Part shown: one piece after another, positions 15,051-64,000 of the stretch
How the letters are laid out: every line of letters starts with the position of its first letter
Numbering within the stretch: position 1 is the stretch's first letter
The notes under the pieces: model-generated
The model's input: the letters and a program-made list of their open reading frames with translations, nothing else
Databases searched by the model: none
What the model was told of the DNA's origin: nothing
Translations under genes and position numbers: made by a program
NCBI GenBank assembly: GCA_008632985.1
Contig: QPGO01000069.1
Span: 124,001 to 188,000, forward strand
Reading direction: 5' to 3'
DNA: 64,000 nucleotides
From: Psammoneis japonica
Taxonomy: Eukaryota

Positions 15051-15073
15051 TGCTTGTGACTTTTTGGAGTGAA

Positions 15074-35948: not shown

Positions 35949-37499
35949 GGATTGCTCGTGCTATTCTCAGAAATGAAACAGCTCCGTTTCACAAGAAGTG
36001 GAAACCACGCGAGCGAGTCTGAAATCTGAAATGCTCAGTGACAACGCACAAAGAACACTCTCAAACGGCAATGGGTGTATGGTATGGAGAAAAGCACCGT
36101 CTCTTGCTTCGCGACTGTTTGCAAGATGGGCCACGGGCCCCAAAGGTACCGTACGGTAGGTTTTGCGCTCAAAAAAGCGCTGAACTGGCTACGTGTGGGC
36201 TACGTAGAAGCAGCACTAATCGATGACGTCACAGGCACCATCCACAACATGCTGTAACACCAACCCCCGCCAACGAAAAAGTCCCTCAGCCAAGAAGGGT
36301 GTGGTGTTGCACCGATGCCGCTGTGCAGAAGCAAGAGGTTGCTTTCAACAGGGTTGAGGAGTGACTCGTCAATTTCTGGTGAGAGTCAGAGGTTGAGAAC
36401 AATGGACCAGAGACTTGGGCAGTGCTTCACAGCAAAAGATGGGTGAGGGGTTCTCACTGCAGCAGTGATGAAAAAAGCCATGGAACAGACGGCATGGCAG
36501 GCAGATGCAGATGCTTCCTGGAGCAAGCATCTCACCAAAAGAGCAGAGGGGTCTTCAAAGGAGGCAGGCAAACTTTGTGAAGTCTCAAATGACTTAAAGA
36601 AAAGCTTGTTGTGCACTTGGCAGTGTTGGCCCAAGTCTCAAGTGCGTCTGTGCTGGAATGTGTGCCCCCTCTCAGACGAGGAGGACTCTCCTGTTTGAAA
36701 ACTAAATGGCAAGTGTTGTCACTTCCTTTGGTGGCCAACAGCTGCAGGTGCATGTGTGTTGGTGCTGCTTTCCAATTGATTCCATTGCAGTTGCTCCACA
36801 GCGTCCCCCCTGGCACATTTCCACACCCTGGTGCATTTTTGCGCATTTGTCTCAAAATGAGCCCCAAAATCTCCAAAATGCACTCAGCGCATCTGGCCAG
36901 TCCTTTGGTTGCAAGCTGAATCTGGATCTAACTTTTTCTTTGCTCACACAGTTGCCACATTTAAATGAAATTTTCAACTGTGCAAAACGCGAAAATGAGT
37001 GCGCCAAAAATCTTCCATTTAAACAAATGTGCTGGTCTTTTTCTTGACCGCAACAGTTTTGTCTCATGGTGCCACAATTCCTTGGACACATTTTGAGCCT
37101 GCAGTTTGGACAACTGTGAAGAGATCCAAGCCCAACAGAAACACAGACAACATCTCATCTGAGTGCGCGCCAGGGCAACAGCGGGGAAAAGTGATGGACA
37201 GATGCGTGTGTGCTGGGAAGACATTGACAGAATGCCGATTGGCAAAAAGAGTGGCAATCCAGCAGACTTCCCAAGCACAAGGAATGATTTGATGACATGA
37301 TTGCTGGCAGCAAAAGAGAACGAGAGAAGCAGACCTCAGAGAGATCATCTGCTGCTTGCGCACCCAGGTCTGACCATCACCCATGCACTCCGTGCTGTGC
37401 TGGTGACACCCTCCCCTGATCTGCAGCGATGTCTTGCAAGACAATGCAGGTCACAAAGAAAGAAAAAAGCAACAGCAACCTTGACCTTGCCAATGGAAA

Positions 37500-40300: not shown

Positions 40301-41224
40301 TGGGCCTGTGATGACATGAGTGCCAACAGAAGAAGAGAATGAGTGAAGCAGATCTCTCACTCAGCATGCTGACAGGAACGTGTGTGGGTGCCATGGAAAA
40401 ATGACTTTTTGCAGCAAATTGTGGAGCCTTTGGTCCCATTCAAAGTTTTTCATTGTGCACTGGTGTTGTCTTCCAAGCTGTGCAGCATGCATCACTTCAA
40501 GAGTGGCTGTGTGAACTAAATGTCCAATTTTTTGGGAAAAACCCGGACATTTCGCACCAAATGCCAAATGCGCGCATTTGCAAAAATGAAATTTCAACAA
40601 TGGGCAATCAATGGGTTTGACTTTGTTGGTTTGTGAGACATCATGGAATGCATGGATGATGGTTGTCAACATGCCTGATGTTCAGCTTCTTGTCAACTGC
40701 AGATGTGTCTGCAGCACCAGTTGTTGGCATTTCCTGGAAAGTCATGGCTGCGGCAATCTTTCACAAGTGGCACAATTTTGGCAAAAGTTGGTGGCAATGT
40801 CAACCTGGCAACAGGGCATGGGCCAACAAGTGGTGCTTGAAACTTGGAACATGCAGCTCTTACAGCAGTCTAACAGCCCTGATGAGCAGGGTGTGTCAGT
40901 GCTGCCCAAAAAGTCACAGTCAAATGAACAGACTTTTTGCTGACTTTGACCACAAAGAGCCCCGACAAACAGTCAAAAGTCAGGTGGTCAGTGGAAGATG
41001 ACTGCAAGTCAATTGACAGCCACAGTCAGTCATTTTTCATGGTGTTTGGTTGGCAAACTGGCTGACATGCATCACTTGTCATGGTTGTCTGCAACTTGTT
41101 TCCACTCTTGACAAGAAGAAATCTGAGCAACAATTGCACAACTTCCACAGGTGTGGCAATTGTGCAAAAATTGACCCAGGTCATTGTTGTTGGTCAACTC
41201 TCTCCCTTGTTGTGGACAAAGCTC

Positions 41225-42480
41225 TCTGACTGCAATTGCTGGGTTGGTTGGTGCACTCATGGTGTTCTTTCACTGTGGAGTTGGGGGGTGTTCAAGTTTC
41301 ACACTTGGTGAGGTGTGAAGTCATGTGCAGCAACAACTGCACCAGGGTTGCCTTGCAATGCTCAACCACAGCTCCCAAAGCACCATCTGGGATCAACCAA
41401 ACACCTCCAATGCCCTTGGACTGCAGGTGCTGGGTTGGTTGGTGCACTCATGGTGTCCTTTCAGTGTGGTGTTGGGGTGTTCAAGTTTCGCCCTTGGTTG
41501 TGTGACGTGACTGGGGGCAACTCAACCGCAGTTCCCAAAGTGTTGCCTGGGGTCCTCCAAAGACCCTCACAGCACTGTGGCTGTTGTTGTTGGGTTGGTT
41601 GGTGTGCTTGTGGTGCCTTTTCAGTGTGGAGTTGGGGCACTCAAGTCGTCTCGTCATTCTTGCACAAGGACAAAGTGACACGGGGCTACAGCTGAGCCAG
41701 GGTGGCCTTGAAACTCTCAACCACAGTTCTTAAAGTGCCACCTGGGGTCCACCAATGACCCTCTGACTGCAATTGTTGGGTTGGTTGGTGTGCTCTTGGT
41801 GTCCTTTTGCTGTGAAGTTGGGGCGTTCAAGTCTCGCGCTTGGTGTGGTGGTGTGAAGAGACATGGGGCAACAACTGCACCAGGGTGGCCTTGCAACTGT
41901 CAACCACAGTTCTTAAAGTGAAGCCTGGGGTCCACCAAAGATCCCTGATGTGCTCTTGCTGCAGTGGGTTGGTTGGTGTGCTCTTGGTGTCCTTTCACTG
42001 TGGAGTTGGGGTGCTCAAGTCTCACCCTTGGTGTGATGTGAAGTGACCGGTTGCAGCAACTGTGCCAGGGCAGCCTTGCAACTCTCAGCCAGAGTTCTGG
42101 AAGCATTGTTGGAGGTCCACAAAAGACACCCAGTGTCCTCCAACTGCAGTTGTTGGGTTGGTTGGTGCCATCATGGTGCCCTTTCAGTGTGAAGTTGTGG
42201 CATTCAAGCCCCGTCATTCTTGCACAGATGAAGTGACATGGGGCCACAGCTGAGCCAGGGCAACCTTGCAACTCTCAACCACAGTTCTTCAAGTGCCACC
42301 TTGGGTCCACAAAAGACCCCCAGTGCCCTCTGACTGCAGTTGTTGGGTTGGCTGGTGTGTGCTCTTGGTGCCCTTTCACTGCAGAGTTGGGGTGTTCATG
42401 TCTCACCCTTGGTGAAGCAAAGTGACTGGCTGGGTTCAATGACTGTGCCAGAGTGACCTTGCAACTGACACAACTTTGAC
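41225..42480. repeat. Tandem array of ~7 diverged units, ~188 bp each
   Basis: Motif tgggttggttggtg..ctc(a/t)tggtgtcc..ttcactgtggagttgggg recurs at about 41240, 41431, 41591, 41777, 41965, 42154, 42344. Confidence 0.9.
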
Positions 42481-45400
42481 ATGTCCTGCACTCTGTCAAG
42501 TTTGCATTCTGGGATTTGCAGAAGTGTCAGAGCAGACTGACAACAGAAAAACTGAAACTCAATGAGAATGCTCACACCTCACCTTGTTCTACATCAGCCA
42601 TGGGCTCTCAGAGCTTGAGACACAACATTAAAGATGGCATGGTTTCACCACTGCCCAACAGTTTTCAAACAAAGAAATGACATTTCCAAGCAACCAAGAC
42701 ACAGCAAAGATGATGAGCAACTCTGAAACACAGGTCAGCAGAGCAACCAAGAAAAAAGAACAAATGACAATGAACATTGTTGCTCCAGGCAGAACAAGGA
42801 TGTCCAAATGGCCAAAGAACCCACCTGCTCACAAACCAGTCTGTTTGATCAAAAATCCAAGGGAGCCATCAGCATGGGCAGCCACCCTGCCACATTGGTT
42901 GCCCTTTGTCAGAGAAGGGCCAGCACTGGAGAAGCCAGAAACACCAACAGACTGCCAGTTGCTGCCCCTGGTGGAGACAACTCCACAACAACAAACAAAT
43001 CCATGCAGCTTGCAGTGCTGCATTGGCCCTCAATCTTGTCCACCCAGCCAACTCAAACCAACCACAGGTGAGCCATGTCACAGGTGGCATTGGCAAAGCA
43101 CCAGCCACAATTGCTTCCTTGGTCTTCTTCATTGCCAAAACTGTGAAGGCATTTTCAAAGCCCCAACACTTCAAAAGCATGCACCGGCCTTTGCCATTTG
43201 TGGCAATGTTGCTCTAACCAACCCCAGCTCCACCTGCCTGGGTGACCTCCTTGCCATTGAAGATGCTCTGACAGTGGTGGAACATGCCCACTTTGCCACT
43301 GCCCAGCACAAGCTTTGCAACAACACCAACAGCTTCCAGCTGGTTGCTCCAGCCTGGACAGAGCTGAGGAAGTCACAAGGCATTTTAGCTGCTGCAGAAG
43401 AGGGCCCCTCCTCTGGCAGCTCTGCCTGCAACCCAACCGCTGGTGAAGATGATGAGGTTTCCAACAACTCTGTCATGATGACAAGCTTGCCTGCAGCATG
43501 AGCCACTCCTCCTCCAACTGCACCAAACCCAAGTGGAGCTGACCGACTGCCTTTGAATCTTCCACCACTGTCACAGCTTCTTCCAAATGCAAGCACTGAC
43601 GTGCCTTTTGTCAACTTGTCCGTGTTGTTCATTCTCCATGTTGCACCCTCCCAGTTGCCCCAGCTGCCATGAGGGCCTCTTCTCAAACTCCTTGCTGCAA
43701 GTGTTGGGTCCACTGTGCAGCAATTGCATGCAGCCAACTTTCCATTTGCCACACCCAAAGAAATTTCACACAAAAGCTTCCACAGTGGCAGCTGCACGCA
43801 TTTTTCATCATCTCTCTCCTGCAACCTCTTTTGCCCTTGCACTGGACTCACATTGCACAATCCCATGCACCCACCCATCTTTCTACCTCTCACACAGGCA
43901 ACCACCAGCTCAGCAATCTTGATGCTGCAAAGCTGCAAATTGCACCCACCCACACCACACATGCCACAAAGCTGTCAGAGCCACCCTTCCATCTGCAGCT
44001 GCTGACCAGCCACACCAGCACAGCATGGGTGCAACCCCAGCTGCCATGACATCAGCCTTGCCTCCAGCCTGCCTCACTCTGCCCCTGCTGTTTCCATCTG
44101 TTTTGGGCCCATGGTCAGCATCCCCCCCCAAGGGCTTGTTCTTTGGCTTTGTTCTTTGTCAACAGCGTGGGTGACAGGGAGAAGAGCATGGCCACTGCCC
44201 TGGCTTGTTTGGCTGCTCATCACAGCACCAGGCAAAAATTTTCTCAACAAGGTTTGGTGACAGCTCAACTTGGCAATTGGTGCCCAACATGTGAAGAAGT
44301 TGTTTGTCACAAAAGCATCACATGGTTTGCACAGCATGTTGCTGCAATCTGCAAGCTCCTCCACAGTGTTGGCAATCTTGTTGCCAACAGCTGTGATTTG
44401 CCACCACCAGGACAAGACTGTTTCTGCCAGAATTGCAAAAGAATGAGCTGAGTTGAGCAAATGATGAGTTGAGGTCAATGCTGGCATTCATTTGCAATGA
44501 AGTGGGGCAGGTTTAGAGAGCAAACGACAATGCAGGTGCAGTGCAGCAGAACAACCACTTGACTGACTCTGTGTGGCAGGGCATGTGCTGGCAATTCAAG
44601 CTGGCATTTGAGGGAGCAGCAATGATCTGAGATGTGCACACCAACATGGTCATGCAAGAAATTCTCTCCATCTGGGTTCAGCTGCATGTCAAAGCAGATC
44701 TTTGCGGTGTTGTGAGCAATCACTTTGTGCCTGCATGGACAAAAAATGTGCTCCTCCCAATTTTGATGGGCATTTTTGTGCCAGCAAGTGAAGATGTGAG
44801 GTGCCAATCTGCTCCCATGTGAGTTGTGCTGTTGTCCTGAAAGAAAACAAAGCCTGTGGTTGCAAGTGCTGCTGCCTTCTTGGCCTGCCCCAGTCTCCAA
44901 GTCAACCCGCCCCAGTCTCCAAGTCAACCCCCACACCCTCAGTGTGCCAAAGTGCAGCAAGAACAGGCAGGGCCAGACAATGTTGGGAGAAGAGAGAAAA
45001 AAGGGGGCATGGTTTTGGGCTTGTGTGTGTGAGCCAGATGACACTGTTCTTCTTGTGATGAAATGCACACCTTTGTGATTTTTGGAGACATGCACTCTCC
45101 ACCATGATTGTGCACCATCATCAAAGTGCTCAATGTTTGCCAAAAGCCCAGCCACTTTGCAGCTCACAGCACCTCATTGAAAGGAGCTGAGACCATGGTG
45201 GATGATGATGGCACAGCAGCAGAGTGCAGTGTTGGCAGTGGCAGCTGCAGAGCAAGATCGCTGACAAAGCCAAGTCCAGCATTTTTTGTCTGGGGGCTCT
45301 CCAGTTTGTTGCTGCACCCCCCCCCCCCCCCCTCCAAGCCTGGCTGCAGTGCCCCCACCCAAAGGGAGTTGCAAAATGCCTGCTCAGTTTTCATGGAGAA

Positions 45401-45857
45401 TGTGCTTCATTTTTTTTGCTGATGACAAATGATGGAAAAACTGACAGAGTTCCAAGCCACCGCCACACTCTGATCTAAGAAACATTTGGAGGCAAAACTG
45501 CAATGCCCCCAACTGCCTGTGTGCATTTCCATCCTGACAGCGCAGCTCAGATGACATGATGGAGTCAAGTCAAGAATGCATTTCACAATGTGCGCGTGGA
45601 CGCTGATGGCAATGTGGTTCACCAAATGCATGAAGCAAGGTCTTGCTTTTTTTCCGTCTGCCCATGCCGTGTGTCTTTGCTTCTGCCGGTGCCCCCACAG
45701 CGCGGAGTCTCAAAAATGACCTGGTGTCACACAAAGATCATCTTGAATCTTCTCACCAATTCAGTTCAATTCTTAAAAATTACACAGCCAATTAGTGGCT
45801 GCTGCCTGGGGCTTAGATTCGCCTGAGAGTCCTTTCAATCCACAACTGTGGATGGGT

Positions 45858-48800
45858 TCAGAGCGTCGATGCACAACAAAACATGTGCAACACCGCATTT
45901 GCAGTTGTGGGCGGCAATCGGCAACTCAGCTCCGTGGAGCCTGGGAGGTTGTCGATGAAGATGCAGAAGCATGTCGTTGTTTTCGCACCCGGACTGCTTC
46001 GATCCAGTTGCGCTTGAAGTCTGTGGTTTCTGCCTGGACTTCCTCCATGGATTGGGTGAACCACCTTGTGAGGTGGGGGGGAGGTGTTGGTTGAATTAAA
46101 GCAGGAGGCAAATTCCGCCTTGATCTTGTCATCCAGAAGGCTGTTGATTCTGATTTGTGTTGCCGAGTTGTCATGAGCAGTGGCGTGCATGCGTTGTTGC
46201 CACATGTCCCAAGAGACTTTCCACAACTGTTGAATCACTCCTGAGAGCCAGCGAAGGCCGGTGTTCTTCCTGTCTAAAAATTTGCAATGTGCCTGTTGAG
46301 CTGCAGCCCAGTCTTCGGCCATGAAGCCACGAGAGAGAGCCTGGCCGCCCAGTGCATCCTGGGCGAACAATGCCATGTCCGCAAGCTCGTTGTCCGTGAA
46401 CCTTGGTCCTTGTGGCAATTCATCATGCCACTCTTGAAGAAGCTGCAGAAGTCCTCGTTTGACGTTGGGTTGCGTGTGATTTTTGTTGAGCCAGTCTTCC
46501 AAGTCACCAAGTCATTCTTGCCATGGTTCAAGTGCTTCGTACGATTTGCAACGGAGTGCGTGGTCGACTCCTTTCTCCGGTTCTCCGCAGCGTGGACATG
46601 CGTCACTTTCGATGCGTCTCCACTCGTGCAGTTTATAATTCGTTCTCACCTGGTCTGCGGACCATTTCGGCTGCCATAGACGGCAAAGGTGGGGCACCGT
46701 TGCATCGCCTTGCCCAAGGCCTTCCAGTCAATCGTGGCATGTCCTGGCTCAGTGCCAAGTTTCTTCTCCCAATGTTGCTCTGCAGGTGGGCCGCAGATGT
46801 GATCCATGATGGTGTCTTTGTCCCACGTTGTGAGAAGCCTGCTGTTCAGCTTGACGTTCCAAATTTGTTGTTCTGTCTGGAATGGAGCGAGGTCGTCATT
46901 GGCCTTGAGAGCTTCCCAGCATGCCTTTGCAAGCAGGTCCATTTCTACATTGAGAACCTCCAGGTGGCCAAGTTCACCAAGGGGCACATGTTGATCTTTG
47001 TGCCCTGTGATTTCAGCCGGAACGACAGCGATCGGAATCAGTTGAATCATTTGTCGAATTGGGTGAATGAGATTGTAGTTGGTCTGTTTCGGGTCGTTGC
47101 AGCTGTTGTGGAAACATGTGGTGATGGCCAAATTGCAATCACAACCCAAGACAATCTGGCCTTGCGTGATTCTGTGTGCTCTGCACATTTGGAGGATGCG
47201 TTCGAGCAGCCCATGGATCCCCCCCAGTTCGCCTCGACATGCCGTGAGATCACTGATGGCGCCCGGCATTTGGTTTGCCCCGCGGCAACGTAATGAATGG
47301 CCTTCTTCCGGCACTAGAATCATGGCTGCTGTGGCAAGATCATCTTTGTAGGACCCGTCTGTAACACCAATGGCTGTGCCTTGACGGATTCCTGTCACGA
47401 GCGCATCGTCTGGCGGTTGAAGGCTGCAGTGAATAAATGCCCACGAATCTGGCATCTCATCCTCTGCAATGATGTCACAGTCGGCAGTGCCAGTTGGGAG
47501 CACTCTGTTCCCCACACGTTGAATCTGAGTTGGTTTGGCGTCTTCGGGAAGCTCAGCAGCGTAGCTCATTAAATGGCAGAGCAGTCGTCTTTTCCTTCTG
47601 CTGTTTGGCGATCTTGAGTGGACTTCGATGCCGTCTTCTCCTGTGCAGAACAACCTGTCGTCATGCTCCGAGAAGCTCCAAGAAGTTGCCGGTTTGCGGG
47701 ACCATTTCCCAAGTCGTCGGCGCAGTTTCAGGTGTTGGTTTCTGCTGATTGCTGGACAGCACGACGCTGGCGCCTCTTGCCACACGTTCCAGCATGTGTT
47801 GGAGGGGTGCCCGGCACGCGGCCATTTACAATGTGATTGGCACTGTGCTTCTCCTTTCCAATGGGCTGGGAGGATTCTGGTTCCGTCGCCGGAGGCGATG
47901 TCCGAGATTGTGGCAGCCTGAATCCACATTCGGCAAATGTTCAGTTTCCTGAGTTTTTCACCTTTGTAGCTGTGGCTTGCAAAGATGCTCACAAGGAACG
48001 CATCTCCTGCACGGTGTGGTGCGAGTGGCGTTGTTGGCGAGAGCAATTCAGTGTCGCACCTGGAGCAAAATTCCCAAAGCAATTTTATCCAGGATTTTGT
48101 GGCCAGCAGCCCGAATTGTTTGAAGTTCTTAAGGAATGGTTGGCCATCCTGTCCGAGCTCTAGCAAGGTGAGTTCGTAGATGAGCTGCATTTCTCTGTCT
48201 GTCATTGATGGAGAATCCATCTGCTGAAGGAATGCTTCTAGCTTCGCCAACCCTTGTTCCACGTGCAGTTCGGGAATCCCCAGCCCGTTGAACTTCAACG
48301 GAGTGTGAAGAATGTCTTTCGGGAACGTTCTTGGGTGGCCTGGAGCTGGGAGAGCAACGTTGAACAGTGGCATTTCGACTTGTGAGCATTCCTTTTTAGA
48401 CAAGGATGCAGCCGCCAACGGGTGTTCAATTCCTCTCATGATGCCGCCTCGTAGAGAGAGCCACAATTCCGTTCTGTTGAGATGCCCGCTTCAGATCTGA
48501 TCTGCCCATTTGTTGACCTTGTCAGACAGTGCTCGAACCTGAGCCTCTGAATTGCCGTCTAATGCTGACCACACACCTGGGGTCTCCCTTGCTTCTGTTG
48601 CTTCGAGCCTCTTGATGGTGACACGCTTCCCTTCGTGGTCGAGCAGTGACACATCCCCCGGCGTTTCTGCGACAGTTTGGCATCTCCACTTGTCTCTTTC
48701 CCACACAAACAAGGCAAGGGACCAGAAGCTTTTTTCTGGGACCAACGCGCCGCCTGTCGCTCGAATGCCTCCTTCCCAGCAGTCTGTCATGTCCTGCATC

Positions 48801-51800
48801 CCTGTGACAATCGTTTTGTAGGTGGCATCCCCATTGGTGGACATGCAAGGTAGATCCGTGTCGTCCACAAAAGCACAGCAGACACAATGGAAGGTCTTTC
48901 TTGTAATCGGTGTTATCGCACGGATGCCGAAGCCTTCCTTGCGCAGCATTTCAATGATCTGGCTGCTGACTAAAAGCCAGATACCCGGTGCTGCTCCATG
49001 ACCTTGAAAAATCCCTTGAAACAGGATTTCGAGAGCTGTGTGAGGGGTCTCTGAGTCACCGCATGCTGTTCTAATGCAGTGCTGCACTTGTTGAAGGGTG
49101 CCAAGCATCGTGAAGGTTTCGTCCTCGCCTGCGCCATGTTTCCTCATGCAGAGGGAGGCAACAGAATGTGGGATCCTGTCACAACATGATTTGGCATCGG
49201 TGCTGTTGATTGCGCCGGGAGTGTGGAGCATGTGCATCATGTCGTTCGTTAGAACCTTGTTGAGAGCGCAGTGCATTGCTCTGTGCCGTTTCCTGCTGCT
49301 GCATGCTTCCCAAGGAATGGCCTTGTGAGTTTCAGCATGGTTGATGAGATTGCGCATGTAGCACTTGTTGACCTGATTGTGCATTGCATCGAAGAGGACA
49401 ATGATCCGGAGCTTCTTCACGTGCGAAGAGTCACTCTCATTCGGGATCATCACATCGACTGCTTTGGTCCAGCATTTGGGTGCATGACCGTGCTTTGCTG
49501 GGATGGCCGCCATGCAGGAGTCGAATTCCGATGCGACTTCATCTTGCACTCCTGCTTTGTAATCCGCAAAGGAAGGCCAAAGGGACTGCTGGACGTGTGT
49601 GCCCTCATCTTCCTCCATCCGTCCATGTGCTCCTTCGTGCTGCAGTCCAGTTCCAGAGGTGGGATGCGGGTGTCGACTTGTTTCAATTGTTCGATGAACT
49701 TCGCCGCGCAGGCGTCTGCGCCTGCTGGAATCTTGCATGTGCCGTCAAGGACCTGTTTTGCTGCTCTTGTGTCGGACAAGTGCCCAAAGGCATCCACCAG
49801 TGGTTTCTGCATGAATGGAACATTCGATCCTTTGGAGAAGGTTTGGCTAAAACGTTCAGTTCCTTCTCGTCCGCAGACGCGCTCCATGCCGTTCTTGGCA
49901 GAGAAGTCCTTTTCCTGCCCGTCGCGTCCTGTCGCTTGAACTGTTTGCAAGGCCAGCTGTGCTTTCCCTGCAACCTGTTTGATTCGTCTGAATGCTTTGG
50001 TTTGTTGGCAGCTGTGGCTGATGAGTTTCTCTTCGTGCTCTGGAGTTGTGTCATTTTCTTCAGCTCTTTTTGCGCACCGTGTTTTAAATTCATTCTGGCG
50101 GTGTTTGGCAGCGTCCTTTTTTAGCCTGTAGCACCTTTTCATCGCTTGTTTGTGTTCCTGCTGAGTGTGGTTCGAGGCAATGTACAGAGCATCCATTCAA
50201 CCAGCACATTTCATGCGGCAACGCATTGTTGACATGCTGACGCGACGCCTTTGTCGGAGCTTGTAAATTGGGTGCCACAGGTGGATTTCCTTTCTAGCTT
50301 TATTGATTTTGTTGGAAGATTCCACCTCGTTCATGTGCAGCTTGTGGCACTTGGTTTTAGAGTGTTGGCGCAGTTTATGATTTTTTTCGAAGATTTCTTC
50401 GTAGGCTTGTTGTAAGGGCGGTGGGAAATCCTCGGCATTCTCAAGATCAATCGCTCGATGTAACATGCCGTCCTGACGAATCTGGGTTGCTGCTGATTTG
50501 TTGTATTTTTTTGTCACTTTAGGCTCTTTCAGTTGGCCAGCCAGTCTGTCGGGGTTGACATCGGCAAGCTTCGGTGGAGTGCAACCCAGTGCGCTTGACT
50601 TGATGATGTCGATCCAAACAATGCGGTGGTCCGAGGTGCAGTCGAAGTCACCAAAGCCAGACATTCCTGCTCGGCTGACTTCCAGTGAGGGTGAAATAAG
50701 AACGGCATCGATTTGAATTTCCGATTGGTTTTTGTCGCAAGCAGCCACTGGTTCAAGTGTCGGGTGTGCTGTTTCGAGTGCGTCAATCATGTTCAGGGAG
50801 CGCATCCATGATCTAAAGGGGGCTGAGTGAACGTTTTCATTGAAATCCCCTCCTGGGACAATCAGATCGCCTTCCGTCTGCCACTTCTTGATTTCCTTGC
50901 CAAGGTCCAAGAGCAGTGCGTCTCGTGGGCACCGATCATCGCCTTTGGAGCTGAAGTGTGTCTCCTGTTGAGAGTGGACTCTTCCTGGGTTTCCTCCTTC
51001 ACCTTGGACGGGGCGGTGCGTCGACATGATCCTCGCATGAGTGCCTGCTTTACCTCGCAGCCTAACCCATGTCCAGCGGCCTGGCCCTGTTGGATCTGTT
51101 CCTTTGACAGTCAAATGGTGGCTGACATCACGTGTCAAGAGCTGTCCGACGCCTCCATGTTGTCTTTTGTTCTCTGTGGAGCAGTGCTTGTTTGCAGCGA
51201 CAATGGAGCTTCCACCTTTCAGGTTCCTCCATCTGTCTTTCCATTGTTCGTGTTTTGGGATTCTGGAGAAGTTGAGGTTCACTTCGCTGAGCCCCATGAG
51301 ATCAGCTTGATTGTCAGAGATCCACTCGAGAATGCCTTTGTGTTTGTCTGCCCTGCCAAGGTTGACGGGGAGGCATCCCACATTGTGAAAGGTGATCCGG
51401 ATGTTGTTTTTCTTCTTCAGCAGCGTGGAGTCCCCCCACCTCTCATTGGTTTGTCGACTCAGTGTTCCTTGTTTAACGTCCTCCTCAGGCAGGCGTTGAC
51501 GGGCCTGCCGAGGATGGCACAGACTGTTCGTGTCGTCCAGCCTCCGTGGCCATGAGGCTGGTTTCGGCTTGTGCACCACCTTCATCGCTGGGGTGGTGTG
51601 CCACGCCGTTTTCGTTGCACACTTCCTCTGGCTGCTGGCGCAACTCCTCCACTTCAATTGAGAGTTCATCGTTGACTTCAAGGGACTTTTGAAGCTTTGC
51701 ATGGGTGGATTCGGTGGTCTTGATGGACGTGTCATCCCTCTCACACTCGTGGAGTTCTTCCAGGTTCTCGTTGTCGAAGAGAACCGTCTTGTTGGCTTTG

Positions 51801-53872
51801 GAGTGTTGAGTGTCGTCGCTCTTGTCCCGAAGCATTCCTGTTGATCCAATGTCATCAGCTTGTGCGAGGCGTTCTGCTGCCTCTTTTGCTGGAGAGGGTG
51901 CCTTCTTGGATGGTGAGGCTGGCAGTTTCTTGGGCGACGTGACTTTGGACGTGTTCCTTTTTTCTTTGGCGTTCAGTCCGCCCTTTGCCTTCTTTTGTGC
52001 TTGCCAGTCATCCTCCATGCCCCAGGGGTCATCTTCGACAATCTCTTTGATCTTGTTGCTCTGGGTCGAAGTGGTGGTTCCTGTTTCCGGGTTGCAGATG
52101 GTGTTTTCGTAAACCGAGATGCCAAGTGACATGAACCAGAAGGCTGCATCCGGTCCAAAGTGGTGAAGGACCTCGGGGATGAGATTGTTGATGGTGCTCA
52201 TCGCTTTCTTGAAATTCTTCTTAGGGAAGGCAATGGTGCATTCGTTTTCCCTGTTCCACTTGTGGTCGATGTGATGAAACAATGGAATCATCTTGGGGAC
52301 ATCAGATGTGGGATCTTGAACACGTTTCCTCATAAGAAATGCTCGCAGGGTCGTGGGAGGATTCTTGGATTTCCGGATCATGTCGAGATTGGCAATGAAG
52401 TTGAAGTCTGTTTGGCTCAACACATTGTTGCAGAAGTGGTGTTGGCACTGTGCGAGCTCATCAACAAATTCGCGGATGTCATCTGGAGCATTCCACATGG
52501 TTGGCGAGGAGCAGCAAGGGACACAACGAAGCTGCAGGCCGAGGATGCGTTTGGGTGCTCCAACCCGCCACAACTTCTCAGCGGCCACTTCAACTTGGTG
52601 GGCGTAATTGACGTTGACGACAAGGTGAAGAGCCTCGGGGTTTTTCTTTGGATCTTTCTTGTCAAAGGTGGGGCGGCATCTGGTTGGCAGGGCGATGGCT
52701 CGCCATTAGAGTCCCAAGCAGTCACGCTTGAATTCCAGACCGAGATGCTTCCGAATGGTGCAGTGAAGCGTCTTCTCGTTCATCGTCTTGGTGCTCATGT
52801 AGAGCCATCCAATGCATTCCAATCAGGTGGACTGACACGGAAGGGGGTTGCAGCCAACGTTGAATTGACCTTCTTCGATGTCTTCAAAAGCTCCGAGTGG
52901 CCTTTCTCCGCATTTCCTTTCGGCTGCAGTGTCGCAGTCGATTTCGCCGTCGTTGGGGTCGCGCACCGCAATGAAGCGGATTTGAGCGCATGTTTCATGC
53001 TCTTGATTGGCTTGTGGTGTGAGACAGTTGACGCCAATGAAAGAGCTGATGGTCTCCCTGTCTTGCGCTTTGCCCGCTGGTGCGTCATCGCCGTCTCGCC
53101 AGGTGCCGAAGGCATCCTCGAGTTCCGGATCCCATGTGCCGATCATCACTTTGTCTCCGAGAACGTCTCCAATGATGTCGACAGCTTTGCGGATCACAGT
53201 GGAGATCGTTTTGAGAGGTTTTTTGGAGGGTGGGATGGCAATGAAGGCGTTGTAGCGGACATCCGTGTAATGAAAACCGCTTTGCATGTCTTCGTCCAGA
53301 GCTTCTTCGTCTTCCTCGACATCTTCCATCGATTGATCTTCTTCAGCGGCTTCTGACTTGGTGCCGAAGAGGTTTTTTGTGGTGTCGTCGAGGTTGCCAT
53401 CATCTTCATTGGAATTGTCAACGTGGTTCCGGCTCGTGAGACCAAGGTTGTCCGTTGCGTCAGTCAGTTTTGTCGTTTCTTGCAATTCTGGGTCGGGATG
53501 ATCTGGGAGAAACATGCTCTGATCTTCTTCTTCAGTCGGTTCTTGCATGTGATCTTTCTCATTAATGACTTCTTCATTTGGGGTGATCTTGTTTTCTGCT
53601 TCGGTAAGTCCTTGACTCCTGGTGTTAGGGCGACCGTCGGCGTTTTTCGGAGTCGCGTAAGGTGGCGCCTTCTTGCGTGAGTTTTGTGTGGAATTTGCAC
53701 TGGACAGCGGTGGGCATTGGATGGAACAGTCATCGTCCTTTTTCTTGGGATTGTCGATGAGGTTCGTTGCCGCTGCTTGGCCATCTTGTCCTTTACCCTG
53801 TTTCTTTTTCATGCCTTTCCTTGGTGAAGCGTTGCTCTTCACCGCAGAGTTGGTTCGTTTCTTAGGTGCCAT
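45858..53872 (-). mobile_element. Non-LTR retrotransposon (LINE; Ambal-like architecture): ORF1 plus ORF2 APE-RT-RNaseH-zinc knuckle, frameshifted
   Basis: APE ITFHNV, GLSEVN, GGDFNE, SDHR (50197-51855). RT KLRIIVLFDA, DAKSCCDRIPH, FQGHGAAP, AFVDDTDL (48491-50196). RNase H TDGSYK, RGELGG, GCDC, ITGHKD, LNVEMD (46646-48466). CPRC..DHALRC knuckle. ORF1 pieces at 51485-53872. Confidence 0.92.
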
Positions 53873-55536: not shown

Positions 55537-57280
55537 GAAACATAAATATCGTATCCCTGTTACTTAAAATGATTGCCTCGCATGATTTCGTTGGTACTTC
55601 CTCTCTCTCGATTAGAGTCCCTGCTGGAGCTGATCCCAGTCAACATCTACGCATTCCAATCTCCTTGTCAACGACCACCAACTGACACCCAAGACGTCCT
55701 TTTGCTGTAGCGTGAAGCGTGACAGAACTTATGGCGACGAAGCGCACGCAGACGATAATGGAACTCGTATGTAGGAGGCATGTTCAAGAGGCTGCTGCAT
55801 TCAATGTTTGTGCGTGAGAGGGACCATTTTCACACAATCATTGTACTGGAGAGAGACTGCGGCTATTCTAGGATCGCCGATTCACAAACAAAGACAGAAA
55901 TCTCTGCTCGCGGCAATCGTTCAGATTTTCATCCACTTCCGATTCGCCGGTTTGGCAGACACTTCCCCCAAACATTGGTCTCTTTGGGATGTGCCACCCA
56001 ATCTTCAACCCCAGACCCACAAGCCCAGGTGTGGTGGTCATGAAAGGACAGCAGGGTGGCACAAAATGAGCATTTTTGGAAAGCTGTTTGAGCTCATGGC
56101 CAGTGGCATTCACACCAAAGTTGGCTGTCCTCCTGCAACAAGGGAGCAAGATCAAGAGCAGATGGCTCAGGAGATGAGCCAAACAAAGCATTGCAGGCCT
56201 GTCCAGCAGCAACTCAAAAGAAAGGCCTTTGTCAAAAATGTCAAACAACACACTGCAGGTGCTGCTCCAAAGCCAAGGAAAGCTGCAAATGCCCTGGCCC
56301 TTGCCCACAGATTGGGTCTGCACATTGTTGTGAGAGCTCATCTTGAGCAACAATCCTGGCTTTCTTGCACAAAGCCACCAACACCAAGCAAGGCAAAAAG
56401 TGCACACACAATTTTTGATTTAGCTGGCAACCTTTGGGTGCATTCCCAAACTTTTCCTGAAAAGAAAAGCAGCCTCTGGAACATTCCAGTCAAAGCAAGA
56501 GAGGACATTGTTGTCATTTGTGAGCACTTGGTGGGGTTTCCTCATTGCTCTGGAAATGCTGGGCACAAGTTCTTCCAAAGCCACAGGCCACAAACACCAG
56601 GACAGAGCAACAAGGTGGAGGTGTTCCTTGTGATCAGACAACAAGTGCTCCTTGACACCGCAGACAAGCTGAAGGTCTGCCTCACAAGTGCAGATGATGT
56701 GGAGATGGCGGAGCTTGCCATTGCCTGGCTCCTTGAAAACCATGACATTGACAATGTCATGCCAGCAGCCACAGAAGCAACCCCACTTCAACACACAGTT
56801 GACAAGATTGTGGCTCAAGTCTGGCCAAGAGTTTTTGATCACTGGGGGGCAGCAGAGGAGAGGTCATGGCATTGGGGGTGGCTGCGGGCCAAAAACATGC
56901 AGGTTTGTGCAGAGGCTGCCAGTGCGTTGCTGCACAGAAAGGCAACAATGATGCCAATGTCAAAAGTGCAGGTGTGGTCCCTCATTGCCATGTGTTCCTT
57001 GTGCCTGGGCAGCTGAAGCTCAAGAATTGCAGGGTGCTCAAGTGTCCTCCCACATGGCAATGCAGCCATTGTTGTTTTTTGCTCTTCTGCTGTTCTGCCA
57101 ACAGTCTTGCCAATCTGGCCTGCTTTTGTCATGGCTGCAGCCATGTGCCAACTGTGATGCCATTGCTTGAATTTCTTTTCAGCTCAAACTAAAAAGGGAG
57201 GAGAGGTGCCACCCACCACATTGCAAGAGTGATCAAAAACCACAATCCCCAGCCATGACAAAAAAAAGCACAGTTTTGAA

Positions 57281-57668
57281 TGTGGGCGAAGATTGGTCGA
57301 GACAAACTGCTTTTTAAAGAGGTCACATGCCTGGCGGGGCCTTTGTGAAGCGACTCATTTAGTCCACTTCACACAGCAAGCACCCCCAAGGTTGACAGAA
57401 ATTGAAGGCAAATGGCAAGAATTCAAACAAGAACTCCTCACTGCTGTCTAAATGGCAGATGAGTCTCCGCTCAGAGACCGTCACAGGAGCCGAAAGACAT
57501 GCAAGTCGGTGTGATCGGGCTGCTGTTGTCATTCTTGTGAGCCTTGTGGCTCGAAAGCAAACTACATTGCGCGCGAATGCATGGAACTAAAGCACACAAA
57601 ACTGTGCGCAGCAAACTAAACAGTGCGCGACATTTCGCGCGCACCCAAATCCTGTTCAAATCCTGTCA
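57281..57668 (-). repeat. Probable 3' LTR of copia 3 (left boundary uncertain)
   Basis: Minus strand starts TGACAGG directly after the PPT; a TG at 57281 gives TG...CA ends, but the partner LTR is not in the window. Confidence 0.55.
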
Positions 57669-60600
57669 CTCCCCAGTTTGCTTGAGGAGCCACAGAAACA
57701 GATTCGACTTCAGATGGAATGAAGTTCCAGAACATGAGGGGGCGGAGAAGGTCCCAGACTTGGGAGTGACCCCAATGCTTGCTGAGAATGTCAGCAGGGT
57801 TGCGGGAGCCTTCGATGAAGTGGAGCTCAAGGCAACCAGAGGCAATTGCCTCACGCACACGGTGGAACAACAGTGCGGTGTGTCGCTTGTGTAACTTGGA
57901 GTGCGGGATGGTGGCACTGTCTACAACCGACTTGTTGTCACCGAACATGTGACTGATGTCACGGATCGGGACGCCAAGGCAGCGCAGGGTGATGCGCAGG
58001 TCGACAATCTGCTCGACACAAGTCCTTGCGGCAACAAATTCAGACCCGCAGGTTGCAGTCTCCACGGTGGCTTGCTTCTCAGAGAACCAATCAGCCGGGA
58101 ATTTGTTGAGGAAGTGGAGCATTCCCATGACAGAGCGTCCGGTGAGCATGCAATGGTGCAAGTTTGCATCGACGCAGTGGGTGGCAGTGACGAACTTGCC
58201 AAGGGGCGGTGGAGCGTCCTTCGGGATCATCTCTTCTGCTTCGCCGCACACGGAATGCATCCATCCACAGGCCAGAGCAGGGAGATCCGAATGGTCAGGC
58301 TCTTCCGTGCGAACGCGGAGAGCGCCGTGTCGCATCTTGGAGAGGCACCCACAGACGCATTTGGCACGATCCAAGTGGCCTTGACGGGGCGCAGCTCGGA
58401 AGCTAGAGAGTGACATGACGGCCGTGGCAATGTCAATTCGACCAAGGGACACTGCCCATTGGAGTGAACCAACAAGAGACTGGAACTTGTGAATGCCATC
58501 GGGCCCCAGCAGTTCGGAAGTGTCCAGTTCGGGGTGGTCACCCTTCTCCAGAGGTGACAGGGCATTGGCGGCAGGTTTCTCCCCAAACAGTCGGGTGCAG
58601 CTGTCGACCATGCACTCAATGCACTTGCGCGGAGACAGGCACAAGGTGCCATCGGGGTCCCGGGAAAAGTCGCAGCCCAGATGGAACTCAATCGGTCCCG
58701 CACCCTTGAGCTTGAACTTGTGCTTTTCCGTGAGAGTGTCGACGAAAGATTGAGGGTCCTTCATGGCAATGGCGAGGTCATCCACACAAACGGCAATGTG
58801 TTTGCAGTGGTCGCCGTTCCTGCGCATCCAAATGTCGGGTTCGGCACGGCAGGGGAAGAAACCTTCAGCTCGCAGGCAGTTGGCGAAGCACTCGTGCCAG
58901 CGGAGGCCGGAGCTGCGCAGTCCATGCAGGGCCTTGTGGATGACAAGGATGTGGCCTTCGAGTTTGCCAAATTCAGGTCCGGCTGCAATGTAGAGCTTCT
59001 CCTTGGTGGTGGCTTCAAGGCAGGCATTGCCAATGTTGGTGGCCCATGTCTCCAACTCGTTGAGTTCGGCTGGGAAAATCATCAGCCGAAGGCCATGGAG
59101 GGAGACCACTCTGGAGCAGACACTGTCGATGGGTGCGTCCGTGAGGTGCCCATCGGCTGCGAGTCGTGCCTTGTGGCGACCATCGTGTTTCACGTCGTAC
59201 ACTGGTTGCACTCGGATCTTCTTGTGTCCCGCAGGAGGAGTGGAAGACTTGGAGGGCCCGCAGTCATGGAAGACTTCGCATTCCTCGAGTTGGTCCATCT
59301 CGAGATTAGTTGCGTCTCCCCATTTGCGGTTGCCATTGCGTTCGTCTAGTGACATGGCATGTTTGCAGTTCCGGGGAACTTCGCATCCGCACTTGTGGCG
59401 AGGTGCAGTGCAGAAGGAGCGAAGCTTGGCTTGGTTGGCCATGTGGAACAGCTTCTTCTGGTGCCTCGCGATGGTGCGGAACCGCTTCCAGCCATCAGTG
59501 TCGAGAAGTCCGTTCTCTCGTGCATGGATGGCGCAGGTGACAGGGTCGTCCTTGGCGATGATGGCAAGAGGCTCGGACATGATCTCCCCACTTTCCCATT
59601 CAAGCACAATGTTGTAGCTTGAGCCTTTCCAGGTTGGGTCATGAGGCTTCAGAGGTCCTTCGTGTGACACAATGCGTCGAAATTTCCAAACAGCAGTGTC
59701 TTCGTCTTCTTGCTCAATGTGATTCATGATGTCGTTGCAGGCCAGGACTTCCTCTTGTTCGTCGTTGTTGACAGAGCAGACAAACTTGGTGAGCTCGGGA
59801 TTGCCGTTCACTTTCCATTCGTGGTCTTCGACGGCCTTGACGATGCGAGCTCTGTGGCGTTGTCCGTCCTCTTGTGGCTGCATGAGGAAGGTGCATCCGA
59901 TGATGTCTTGCGGATCGAAAACTGGCATCTTGGGTGTCCTGATCTCCCCATCAGGTGAATCGACGGGGTTGTCGTCATGGCGAGATTTGATGATGGGTTC
60001 AGGTGGCTCCCCCCATCAGGAGGATCAAGACACAGGTTTCGAATGGCATGATCGGTGGCAGCGGATCGTACGTTAGACCGGCAGAGGATCTTCTGAGTCT
60101 CGTCAGAGAGAATCTTGAAGGTCATCTGGTGGCCGACATGCTCAGCAATGCCAACAAAGCGTCCACGCAACTCACGGGATTCGGACGGCCAATCGGAGTC
60201 ATCGAGGTGGAAGCACATGGGTTCCCACCAGTGAAAGCGAAGCAATGGGCTGATGTCCGGGGTGGAGCCAGTGAGAGTCTCGAGGGGCGTGCGCCAGTGG
60301 AGACGTGGGGACGCTGCATGGTTGAGTGTGAAGCACACGCACATGAGCGCCAGCAGCCATGTGTGGGCAGGCGAACCGAAATGATCCATGACAGTGTTCG
60401 CCATGCGCTTCACAGTCTGGCATCGACGTTTGGCAAAGTTTTGGTGTTGCTGGTGAGGCTCACTTTGCCAGCTGGAGATGAAGAGGGCTCGTAGGATCCC
60501 GAGCACCTTGTTGCTGATCTCAACTTGAGCACGGTCGCCAATGAGTTTGGATGGAGCACCACGCTCACGGATCTGATCCTTGAGTTTGTTGACAAACTCT

Positions 60601-62814
60601 TTGTCCGTTTTGGTGCCGCAGACGTCAGTGACGGTAGACTTGGTGCCAACAAACAGTTGGGCGCTGGTGCAACCAGAGTCGATGGCCGGGGTGTTGGCAC
60701 AAACGGCGTCAGTGGCGACAGGCTCGTTGCGGCGGTGCACATTAAGGGCGGGGTTGGGCGATTTGCAGGCCTTCCTGAGGTGTGTGCCGGCGGGCATGCG
60801 GGCGCACTGCGTGGTGCAGTCGAAAGTACGACGAACCGCATTGGCAGGTTGGAAGCCAAAGCAAGGCCGAAGAGACTCGAAGGGGGGGTCCTTGGGCTGC
60901 ACAGTGCGCTCCAGGGGCGGAACGTCATCATCCTTGGGGTCAATCGCGTGCAGATGACACTCGCAGAACACGTCGTCATTCGGAATGAGATGGTCATCGA
61001 GGGCGGACGCGTGATCAGCAGACAAGGAGGCGGACATGATGGTCTTGTTGACAACGACACGATGACGGCAGTTGCCACATTCGTCAAATGGGTTGGCAGT
61101 GGGATCATCCTGTGGGTCAGAGATCGCGTCGCACCACTGATCGTTGTCAGTGACAGAGTGATCGAGGACGGAAGGATCCCATGTGTCATCACCGGTGAGG
61201 ATGACATGGGGCAGGGTGTCCCATTCGGCGTCAGTGCAAGGTCGCATGGCAACACAGGGCAGGCCGCCCTTGATGTCAATTGGGATGACACAGCCATCAG
61301 GGGTGGCAACGCGTTGCAAGCCGTTGGGCACCTTGACAGAGCGATCGTTGACATCCTGTTTGCACCATCCGAGCTGGCTGCAGGAATGAATGGTCTTGCC
61401 CTTGCCCGTGCATGCGTGCTGATGGAGGATGGCGATGACGGGACCACGCTGGGTCTCAATGACGGCACCAGCGGTGACAACAGGGATGTCCACCAATTGA
61501 TGGTCGTCAATGCCCTGAACGTCGACTTGGCGAGAGGTTGCGTGCAATGACGCAAACGTCGTCGCCAGCAATGCCGCCGTTGGCCCCACGATCGACCAGA
61601 GCACCAGTGCGTGTGGAGGGATGAGCAGAGGCAGAGCAAATGACATTGTGGTTGTCAACGCGGCGGCAAGTGCGGCCATCAAGTTCTGTGTCATCGGCAG
61701 GAGCTGGCGGAGTAGAGGGAGCGGCGGATGGCCCCGGTCGACTGGCGTTGGGGGCTTGGTCAGGAGACAACAGACATTGCAGATCACCGGGTGGCAGTGG
61801 CTTGCGCTTGGTGAGGTGCGCCAGGATGGGATTGTCCGAAGTGGCACCCACATTTGGAGCGGGGTCACCAGAGTCAGCAGGAGTCGTGTTGGACAAGTTG
61901 ACATCACCGTCACTCCCAAGGCGTTGGTCGTGAAGGTTGGCCGTAACGGACTCATGGCAGTTGCTGGCTCGCGGGTTGCGGGGAGGTGGACGAGAATGCT
62001 CAAGGATGATTGCCTTGGAGGAATGGGGCAACGAATCCCAAATCTGTTGGTGGTCGGGAGGGAGACGTTTCCATTGGTCACCGGTGAGGCTGGGACCGCG
62101 GGTGCAGGCAGCATTGGCCTGAAGGATGTCAACATCGCTGTCGATGTCATGGAACACATCATTGGACGGTTCCTCAGAGTGGACATCGTGTGCGTGTGTG
62201 GCACGTCGGGGAGCTCGAGGTGTCGTCTTGGGTTGAAATGCACTGTCGCATTGAGCCGCCGCGGAGAGGAGCAAGCCACAACGTTGATCACATGTGAGGC
62301 TCTTGCCACTCTGCGTGCGATGCTGATCAGCTTGGTTCTTGACAGCACGGAGTTCCTTGACAGGATGTGCGGCATTCTCGAGCATGACGCGCTTCTGTCC
62401 TTCAGAGAAGTGGTCACTGGCCGGGATGAGTGCCTCATGCTTGCGCAACTGATCTTGCCAATGAAGGATGAACCCGTGGGTCGGACCTTTCCAAGCACCA
62501 TCACCAAGACGTGCGGTGGCAAGGTGCATGAGCAAGGTGGAGGACTCGATGGATGCACGGGTGGAGGCGAGCGCATGCTCGGACAAGGCGCGGTGGACGG
62601 TCTGGGTGTCAGAAGACCCCACATTTTTGCAAATGAGAGCCTTGCCCTTGTCGGTGAGAAGGATGCGTTCGAAGATGGCGAACATGCACTTTTGCTGTTC
62701 AGCAAAGAGCAGTTTGTCTTCGGGGCTGGTCGGTTTGTACGACGAGTCGAGAGTGCACTCGACGTCTTGGGCACGGGCTTGTGCCACAAGTGAGGTGTGC
62801 CAAGTGTGCCACTG

Positions 62815-63202
62815 ACGGGCTCCAGTCCCAGGTGGGACTCCGTGTGACATTTGGCCCGCAGAATTCTGCGTGCGAGCTCCGTAGTGCGAGAATTCTGTTG
62901 ATGGATGTGTTCATCTTCAACATCAAATAAACGGCCAAGTTTGTGGTGCAATTGTGCCTCTTGCCACTCGACTTTTTTGCAAATGCACCTGCCCCACACG
63001 ATTCTTAAGACATTGTAGAATCGCGCTGTAACAAAAAATGTCAAAAGTTGTTGGACGGATCGCTCAATGAGTGCACCGTAAAATGACAAAAAATGTCGAA
63101 AAAATCATGTAGAAATCTACGTGCGCGACATACGACGTGATCCAAAAAACTGTCGATGTCACAGTTCAGCAGTGCGAGGTCCCACCCAGACCTAGAATGC
63201 GT
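62815..63202. mobile_element. 388-bp non-autonomous element (MITE-like) inserted in copia 3 gag
   Basis: 6-bp TSD CCACTG (62809-62814 and 63203-63208); imperfect ~26-bp TIRs (ACG...GGTGGGAC); removing it restores gag KSDKQW-HTWHTSLVAQARAQ. Confidence 0.85.
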
Positions 63203-64000
63203 CCACTGCTTGTCAGATTTGAGAGCCGTGAAAGTGGTGGGGTCACGCTTGATGCCTCGCTTGAAGTCTCATGCCGGGTCGTGTGCCTTGGTCGGGTTGG
63301 TGACATGCGGAGGTGCGAGGGGCAAGCTGCCGACGGACACAGAAGACATGCAGTCGGGGCTGAGGCAGCAGGCAAGGAACTCCTCATGCATGAACAACAA
63401 GGAGTCATTGGCAACATCAAGACCTTCGTGTGCTTTGACAATGTGCAGACTGGTCAGAGCTGCTAACATGTTCTTACAACCGCGGGGCAAAGGGATCACA
63501 TTGGTGCCATCATCGCACTCAAGCGAGTCGATTTGTGACGGCATGAACATGAACAGTTCTTGGCGCGAGTCCGTGCCGTCGTGGGTCAAAGCCAAACAAA
63601 GAGGGCTCCCAGCACCTTGGGCAAGCACAGTTCCAACAACGTGCTCAAAACCATCGGTTTGTTGCTGACGAGTGAGAACCATGGCAGACAAAAGTGGTGT
63701 CAGGACAAGCGATTCTTGTTGGGACGCGAAGGCAGACTTGAAACTTGGGTGAGAATGGACTTAACTTGAAGTGGACTTGACTTGAAATCTTGAACTACCT
63801 TAAAATCAGAAGTCGCCAGGCTGTGCTGTCCCGATCATTGTCAAGTGCTAAACTTCCCATCCGGTCCGTAGAGTTGTGCCGGCACGTGCGAACCCACAGC
63901 CAGCGGCGCTTTGGGTTGCTTGCAAGCGGAGTAGCGGGTTGTAAACCCCTGCAGGCAAGCTGACTGGAGGTGGACAAGACCCCCGAACCGTTCTCATTTT

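Follow-up and report, generated by a model that had tools for sequence, protein, structure and literature searches.

Near-complete loss of TpA from retrotransposon DNA in a Psammoneis japonica contig points to TpA-directed hypermutation

Fungal repeat-induced point mutation (RIP) changes C to T mainly at CpA, with enrichment of TpA, and methyl-CpG decay yields TpG and CpA by C>T change; deamination of 5-methylcytosine cannot yield A:T>G:C changes. Clusters of deaminase-type transitions with a neighbour-base preference are left in retroelements by APOBEC3 (C>U in cDNA) and by ADAR (A>I in double-stranded RNA), the latter to our knowledge confined to animals. The closest described system is that of the rhizarian chlorarachniophyte Bigelowiella natans. 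According to the accessible part of a preprint (Mettrop et al., bioRxiv; 10.64898/2026.01.13.699255), 230 of 231 new mutations in the integrated nucleocytoplasmic large DNA virus (NCLDV) and virophage DNA of B. natans mutation-accumulation lines were A>G or T>C, all of these at TpA, in some lines only and at a rate ~1000 times background. The same text reports that TpA-poor coding sequences of B. natans are enriched in RT and DDE domains, proposes an ADAT2-like deaminase as the candidate, and states that ADAR prefers a 5' U (10.64898/2026.01.13.699255). Here we describe a 64,000-nt stretch of the Psammoneis japonica assembly GCA_008632985.1 (contig QPGO01000069.1, positions 124,001 to 188,000; "the window", whose own numbering is used below). 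It carries a Ty1/copia-type retrotransposon copy, copia 3 (57393–62807, minus strand), that is almost devoid of TpA (TA). Comparison with intact relatives supports the conclusion that this loss is TA-specific, mutational (TA>CA or TG) and much faster than CpG decay.

Between 57616 and 62800 (5185 nt), copia 3 contains exactly 18 TA, where base composition predicts 235 (observed/expected ratio, o/e, 0.08). A preliminary description of this DNA, made from the letters alone, had put the number at ~18 in 5.2 kb, and the exact count agrees with it; in 2000 mononucleotide shuffles of the interval, TA averaged 235.8 with a standard deviation of 11.8 (236 ± 12 when rounded) and never fell below 197. 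Windows of 5185 nt taken from the gene block at 16–36 kb hold 160–210 TA each. The element is CpG-rich, as had also been claimed, with 345 CG (o/e 0.83), and both CA (o/e 1.66) and TG (o/e 1.34) lie above expectation. The whole body, 57393–62807, has 21 TA (o/e 0.08) and 355 CG (o/e 0.82), with CA at 1.64 and TG at 1.36.

The reverse transcriptase (RT)/RNase H frame of copia 3 (57616–60015, minus strand, 799 aa from stop to stop) matches Pfam RVT_2 with an E value of 1.6e-21 and 77.5 bits against a cut-off of 31.6, which makes it a copia-type reverse transcriptase; the copia label rests on this match to a Ty1/copia-type RT, and membership of the diatom CoDi lineages may be hinted at by the diatom-like host genes described below. 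Public protein data contain 1229 relatives of this frame, of which the best match it at ~63–66% identity. Compared with the 120 listed of these 1229, the frame is nearly free of tyrosine (3 of 800 residues; the median of the 120 is 4.2%) and rich in histidine (5.4% against 3.6%) and cysteine (4.1% against 1.1%). Three of the 120 (P0120, P0092 and P0067) were dropped as being Tyr-poor themselves, and the 375 RT columns in which at least 80% of the remaining 117 share a residue were taken as conserved. None of the 20 conserved Tyr was kept (14 are now Cys, 4 His, 1 Trp and 1 Phe), against 326 of 355 conserved non-Tyr residues. For upstream pol, compared with 54 relatives, the figures were 0 of 3 and 103 of 115, so that in both parts together 0 of 23 conserved Tyr and 429 of 470 other conserved residues were kept. 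The 49 changes at conserved RT columns comprise 24 single TA>CA or TA>TG changes, 12 single CpG>CpA or CpG>TpG changes, and 13 that are neither. The Tyr of the RT YVDD motif is lost, the query reading AVCVDD, and two substitutions outside Tyr codons, L315P and V286A, correspond to CTA>CCA and GTA>GCA. All 12 peptides for which Tyr>His or Tyr>Cys changes had been proposed without database searches stand opposite Tyr in the consensus of 20 relatives, their counterparts being GYKKI, SVYS, NAYL, LYGL, YEYVAVYVDD, KYIE, PDYS, HYVDANL, TYGSE, LRYLG, SYMFG and WGY; the Leu>Pro (IFPAEL) and Val>Ala (RLAADG) changes proposed along with them face FLAEL and RLVADG.

At the nucleotide level, we compared copia 3 by codon alignment with the closest intact relative found, the metagenome locus L001 (69% amino acid and 68.2% nucleotide identity). 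Only 6 of the 99 TA sites of L001 were kept in copia 3, whereas the 15 other dinucleotides were kept at 38–65% (CG at 73 of 179, or 41%); non-TA sites are thus not as diverged as TA sites. Two control comparisons between intact elements of similar divergence kept 32 of 98 and 35 of 96 TA sites, and 33% and 31% of CG. Where L001 has TA, copia 3 reads CA 26 times and TG 27 times, and the reverse (TA in copia 3, CA or TG in L001) occurs once, a ratio of 53:1. The RT regions of 80 related metagenome elements have a TA o/e of 0.32–1.08, against 0.07 in copia 3. It had been suggested that the TA process is much faster than background mutation, and retention of 6 of 99 sites, where intact controls keep 33–36%, bears this out; that its chemistry is no by-product of cytosine methylation follows from the A:T>G:C direction of the changes (53:1) together with the 41% of CG kept. 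If ~90% of TA and ~20–30% of CG have been lost from copia 3, the per-site rate of TA loss would be ~7–10 times that of CG.

P0120, a copia RT encoded in public metagenome data, shows the same pattern. When it is aligned with its intact relative L042 (3640–6087; 76% identity), the 31 Tyr positions of L042 read 14 His, 10 Cys, 6 Tyr and 1 Phe, such that 24 of 31 were converted to His or Cys; the process is therefore not confined to the Psammoneis assembly. The proteins P0092 and P0067 are likewise Tyr-poor.

The loss depends on the flanking bases. TA was counted by context in 39.6 kb of transposon DNA (1–15900, 36300–53200 and 56000–62807) and in 20.25 kb of genic DNA (16000–36250), with R denoting a purine and Y a pyrimidine. 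Residual TA in transposon DNA fell into 8 RTAY, 78 mixed and 85 YTAR sites, against 210, 407 and 95 in genic DNA (chi-square p = 2e-28), and the pattern was the same in each block. Relative to genic density, survival was ~2% for RTAY, ~10% for mixed sites and ~46% for YTAR; the 8 RTAY left compare with ~410 predicted. Among tetranucleotides, ATAT, ATAC and ATAG survived at 0–1%, TTAA at 71% and CTAA at 56%. The best-surviving contexts were TTAA and CTAA/TTAG. A model with one good target per strand would place mixed sites at 0.14, the square root of the RTAY value, compared with 0.10 observed.

Both strands were hit. The Tyr codons of 57616–61586 show 24 Tyr>Cys and 9 Tyr>His changes, that is, more A>G on the sense strand, and CTA>CCA and GTA>GCA changes occur besides. 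The ratio of Tyr>Cys to Tyr>His was 15:5 with a pyrimidine preceding and 9:4 with a purine preceding. This sense bias is absent in P0120, with its 14 His against 10 Cys, and in all-site counts against relatives CA is at least as frequent as TG, a comparison confounded by synonymous T/C differences. A scheme that makes the base 3' of the A decisive was favoured by the Tyr codons but not adopted, since no more than 3 of 8 family-informative sites conformed to it.

Four sequencing runs, all from one sample and one study and none of them listed as RNA, cover the stretch as contigs and allow copia 3 to be compared with other copies of its family. Summed contig depth jumps ~1000-fold past 57335, near the left edge of copia 3 at ~57393, where runs X2–X4 have loose contig ends, and stays at 5e4–3e5 from ~57335 to the window end; the element therefore belongs to a very high-copy family. 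In run X1, 380 of 428 places of difference were transitions. Site types were counted in the best-supported 40 of 439 rows of family differences: in 24 the other copies have CG and copia 3 has CA or TG, in 8 the other copies have TA and copia 3 has CA or TG, in 3 copia 3 has CG and the others TG or CA, and the remainder are 3 other transitions and 2 transversions. TA is carried by 83–92% of the depth at 58080, 58622, 58787 and 62995, so the family as a whole is not TA-free, and the TAs of copia 3 disappeared from this copy individually. Three alleles, TA, CA and TG, occur side by side at 57950/1.

The coding frames of copia 3 point to a dead copy. Its upstream pol part (60012–61586, minus strand) was located in a different frame from the RT by tblastn with the intact relatives P0036, P0040 and P0032, whose residues ~43–609 match frame -3 and whose RT part matches frame -2. 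About 570 residues upstream of the RT match intact relatives, and pol is split across three frames (-2, -3, -2) over 61650–57650. Both frame changes coincide with indel polymorphism among family copies: at 60009–60010, about half of the X1 family depth is without 2 letters at 60009, and at 61538, within the frame change at ~61530–61590, a 1-letter omission is found in part of the family in four of four runs. With all conserved Tyr lost and pol in three frames, the copy cannot be functional: copia 3 is a dead member of a Ty1/copia-type retrotransposon family of very high copy number. An upstream open frame of 467 aa from stop to stop (61507–62910, minus strand), which has no Pfam match, is putatively gag. 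Upstream pol gave no rve (integrase) Pfam match, nor did the intact relatives P0036 and P0040, and no Pfam gag, protease or integrase family was found in any frame tried or in intact relatives.

Long open frames had been taken as a sign of intactness, which they are not. The six frames of 57616–62800 contain 20 TAA and TAG stops together against 202 TGA, and the near-absence of TAA and TAG leaves frames of 166–467 aa open on both strands; the long frames are no evidence that the element is intact. The accompanying statement that the element is little decayed apart from TA is overstated: non-TA conserved residues are mostly kept, but the copy has two frameshifts and many private CpG losses.

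A segment within the element (62808–63203, 394 nt) retains TAs, with 10 TA (o/e 0.37) and a CG o/e of 1.06. It is flanked on either side by CCACTG and is skipped exactly by a few contigs in each of the four runs; it could be a later insertion, a product of gene conversion or a protected stretch. Upstream of it with respect to the copia 3 body lies a TA-poor stretch (63204–63760; 2 TA, o/e 0.07) that has no long terminal repeat (LTR) match to the other element end. The TA-poor domain stops at ~63760, and 63761–64000 holds 7 TA (o/e 0.53).

The remaining transposon-derived DNA of the window is depleted of TA to a similar degree. A second copia-type LTR element (438–7572, minus strand; LTR pair 438–662 and 7347–7572) has a TA o/e of 0.07 and a CG o/e of 0.54, and its frame at 1389–2963, which matches RVT_2 (E 8.9e-26), contains 0 Tyr in 525 residues. 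An old, CG-poor LTR element (8805–15399; LTR pair 8805–9125 and 15074–15399, 78% identity) follows, with TA at 0.05 and CG at 0.16. Other window elements were considered as close relatives of copia 3 and rejected, as tblastn gave no match. The stretches 7573–8804 and 15400–15944, which lie beyond the recognisable LTR ends, match the elements in their lack of TA and scarcity of CG, and represent either older debris or spread of the process past element ends. An old repeat relic block (36300–46400) has TA at 0.05, CG at 0.15, CA at 1.78 and TG at 1.91; inside this TA- and CG-depleted block is a tandem array at 41217–42470 that matches itself at shifts of ~190 nt with 70–74% identity, and the block shows weak inverted similarity to 11.0–12.0 kb. 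Next to it lies a LINE-like non-LTR retroelement (46401–53200, minus strand; Exo_endo_phos E 1.6e-10, weak RVT_1) that is partly hypermutated, with TA at 0.16, CG at 0.74 and Tyr counts of 3 in 592, 3 in 418 and 6 in 615 in its frames. An older relic without TA and CG (55870–57392; 4 TA, o/e 0.04; 16 CG, o/e 0.17) abuts copia 3. The edges of the TA-poor domains are sharp; here, dense TA ends at 55869, and the next TA is at 56421. One 3553-nt contig of X1, at a depth of 60.8, matches 56000–57418 with 0 differences and so covers ~1.4 kb of the TA-free relic and reaches just into copia 3.

Over all transposon blocks, TA o/e was 0.04–0.16 throughout, with CG at 0.05–0.82 and CA and TG at 1.3–2.0. 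TA depletion is thus saturated whatever the CG state, and it is in this sense that the two losses are uncoupled. In the old relics (36300–46400 and 55870–57392) TA and CG are both at 0.04–0.17 and CA and TG reach 1.7–2.0; there, two different processes converge on CA and TG products.

The depletion is restricted to transposon-derived domains. The host gene block (16000–36250), which served as internal control, has 712 TA (o/e 0.53), CG at 0.95, and CA and TG both at 1.18; it encodes adh_short, NDC10_II, LRR, RelA_SpoT with HD_4, and PALP domains, and several open reading frames (ORFs) in the window run uninterrupted for more than 600 aa. All six organism-named matches of the RelA/SpoT gene (36–39% identity) are to species that we take to be diatoms, and its best match overall is at 57%. 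Judged from the sequence, the host looks diatom-like, not like Bigelowiella. Within the otherwise normal gene block there is a local TA dip at 18501–19000 (2 TA, o/e 0.08; CG o/e 0.55), which corresponds to the C-terminal end of the NDC10_II-domain ORF at 18635–20593 (minus strand) and may reflect partial hypermutation of a transposon-derived gene. Direct repeats of ~185 nt with 75–91% identity, of normal TA content, lie at 17303–18053.

We consider it reasonably probable that the region is explained by targeted TpA hypermutation acting at the DNA level on integrated transposons. In such a process, TpA would become CpA or TpG by A:T>G:C change at the A of 5'-TA-3' on either strand, near saturation in all transposon-derived DNA of the window and with the gene block spared; R-TA-Y would be converted almost always and Y-TA-R about half the time. 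Tyr codons, including that of the YVDD motif, would be removed together with TAA and TAG, and the element killed. The process would be chemically distinct from methyl-CpG decay, with a per-site rate about an order of magnitude higher, and would drive old repeats towards DNA without TA and CG that is rich in CA and TG. Adenine deamination would be the chemistry, and action after integration, as a targeted genome defence, is suggested by the almost complete removal of RTAY from every block, old single-copy relics among them, by the graded state of the least CpG-decayed LINE, and by the precedent in the accessible B. natans text.

In our view this process and the TpA-only hypermutation described for integrated viral DNA in the B. 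natans preprint are of one kind. Both comprise A>G and T>C changes at TpA giving TpG and CpA, with TpA depletion and CpA and TpG enrichment, and both are confined to foreign or mobile DNA with sharp bounds, at a rate that in B. natans is orders above background. As far as the accessible text goes, the two differ in host (a chlorarachniophyte there, a diatom-like and hence stramenopile host here), in target (NCLDV and virophage there, LTR and LINE retroelements here) and in extent (a Rho of 0.45 in the NCLDV region, against near saturation at o/e 0.04–0.16). In addition, heavy CpG decay to the same products coexists here, the strong excess of RTAY over YTAR conversion goes unmentioned in that text, and the B. 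natans mutations were seen de novo, whereas the present signature is known from standing sequence alone. Like RIP, the process makes dinucleotide-specific transitions confined to repeats, riddles transposons with missense changes, spares genes and has a proposed defence role, but its direction is opposite, with TA at 0.08, CA at 1.66 and TG at 1.34 in copia 3. The TA-free relics are at single-copy depth, though the copia 3 family is high-copy. Methyl-CpG decay shares both its products and its transposon domains; the change here, however, is A>G instead of C>T, TA stands at 0.04–0.16 while CG ranges from 0.05 to 0.82, and copia 3 has kept CG as well as the intact controls (41% against 31–33%).

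Several observations weigh against DNA-level action on integrated copies, and some of them would be better accommodated if element RNA, single-stranded cDNA or both were deaminated at the A of UA or TA during retrotransposition, as an adenine counterpart of APOBEC3 or ADAR, so that copies arrive hypermutated and dead. Every hypermutated element identified is a retroelement (two LTR elements and the LINE); domain edges are element edges where visible; Tyr>Cys exceeds Tyr>His by 24:9, as editing of genomic RNA would give; and the different alleles (TA, CA and TG) found at one site among family copies fit this account as well. The internal 394-nt segment that retains TAs is not predicted by a simple regional process and would be easier to explain by a non-regional one, and a simple regional process likewise does not predict that certain TA sites persist in the majority of family copies and others are fully converted. 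Nor do LTR comparisons settle the matter in favour of mutation in place. No direct repeat joining the ends of copia 3 was found within the window by repeat search, by blastn, by a diagonal scan in a purine/pyrimidine alphabet or by aligning the two ends directly at an offset to which one contig joint pointed, and its 5' LTR may lie beyond base 64000. The LTR pairs of two neighbouring elements show 7 and 10 CA-versus-TG double mismatches, against 0.4 and 0.6 on column shuffling, but they are also dominated by CG-versus-CA/TG differences, the double mismatches are derivable from ancestral CG or TA, and a model with CpG decay only fits pair 1; we therefore rejected these pairs as proof of TA mutation in situ, as ancestral TA and CG cannot be told apart there. 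Finally, the confirming runs all derive from one sample and may be the very data from which the assembly was built. Even so, we regard editing before integration as unlikely. Sense-strand T>C is common (9 Tyr>His, CTA>CCA, GTA>GCA), which editing of RNA cannot account for by itself; the minus-strand cDNA would have to be the target of a further activity. APOBEC3 and ADAR act on cDNA or RNA, mark one strand and stay well short of saturation, editing in a single round at levels far below the erasure of RTAY seen here, whereas both strands are affected in the window and nearly all RTAY are converted (8 left of ~410 predicted) in every block, old single-copy relics included. P0120 is without sense bias (14 His to 10 Cys), and in B. 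natans, according to the accessible text, integrated DNA viruses acquired the signature in the course of clonal growth.

The same DNA-level process could instead work through thymine: modification or oxidation of T at TpA, for example to 5-hydroxymethyl- or 5-formyl-uracil by an enzyme of the TET/JBP type, would let it mispair with G and give T>C. As TA is self-complementary, a T>C and an A>G change at TpA cannot be distinguished by their products. In dinoflagellate DNA, 5-hydroxymethyluracil is found preferentially at TpA and TpC, and 5-formyluracil is a base that mispairs with G. We nevertheless find thymine chemistry improbable: the Tyr codons suggest a T-A-Y preference, which is akin to U-A-C, the natural substrate context of TadA, and the B. 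natans authors, in the part of their text accessible, favour adenine deamination with an ADAT2-like protein as candidate. It is also conceivable that no host mutation process is involved and that the family is natively TA-poor, that selection acts against TA or UA, or that modified TpA causes a base-calling or assembly artefact. In favour of such readings, the gene block too has a moderate TA deficit (o/e 0.53), the best run contained no more than 0.49 of the 31-mers sampled from the region, and at some places the window letter was seen in no contig of the runs examined. This family of readings is largely refuted, and we give it hardly any credence: 80 relatives have TA at 0.32–1.08, the replacement of all conserved Tyr including that of YVDD, together with two frameshifts, rules out selection for function, the contig at single-copy depth reproduces 56000–57418 without a difference, and an unrelated metagenome protein shows the same Tyr>His/Cys pattern.

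We found no report of TpA hypermutation in diatoms in the literature (subscription journals and preprint supplements lay outside the coverage), and term look-ups in PMC6604790, PMC9998398, PMC2806351 and PMC8147415 gave none either. Judging by the accessible text on B. natans, this kind of system was first described in 2026, and a new host lineage, a new target class and a flank rule are added here. The existence in diatoms, at least in the present one, of a RIP-like defence of opposite polarity is in our view an evenly balanced question; it would consist of a TpA-directed activity, probably a DNA adenine deaminase with T-A-Y preference, acting on integrated transposons in silent chromatin at about tenfold the rate of methyl-CpG decay.

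Before 2026, no eukaryotic genome defence was known to mutate A:T pairs, and the sole report, as far as its accessible part shows, concerns two viral insertions in one chlorarachniophyte strain. A saturated signature in diatom-like retrotransposons would extend the process to a second major lineage and a second target class. The flank rule, with RTAY erased and YTAR spared, is a testable enzyme fingerprint, and genetically tractable diatoms exist in which the mechanism is open to knock-out tests. There are also practical consequences: TA-free DNA is nearly without TAA and TAG, so gene callers may report frames of dead transposons as proteins, and dating by LTR divergence and CpG-based proxies of methylation are distorted by two processes that feed one CA/TG pool. 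If diatoms have such a defence, TpA hypermutation would, together with the chlorarachniophyte case, be an ancient or recurrent immune mechanism of the SAR (stramenopile, alveolate and rhizarian) supergroup, and it could help to explain the general TpA deficit of SAR genomes.

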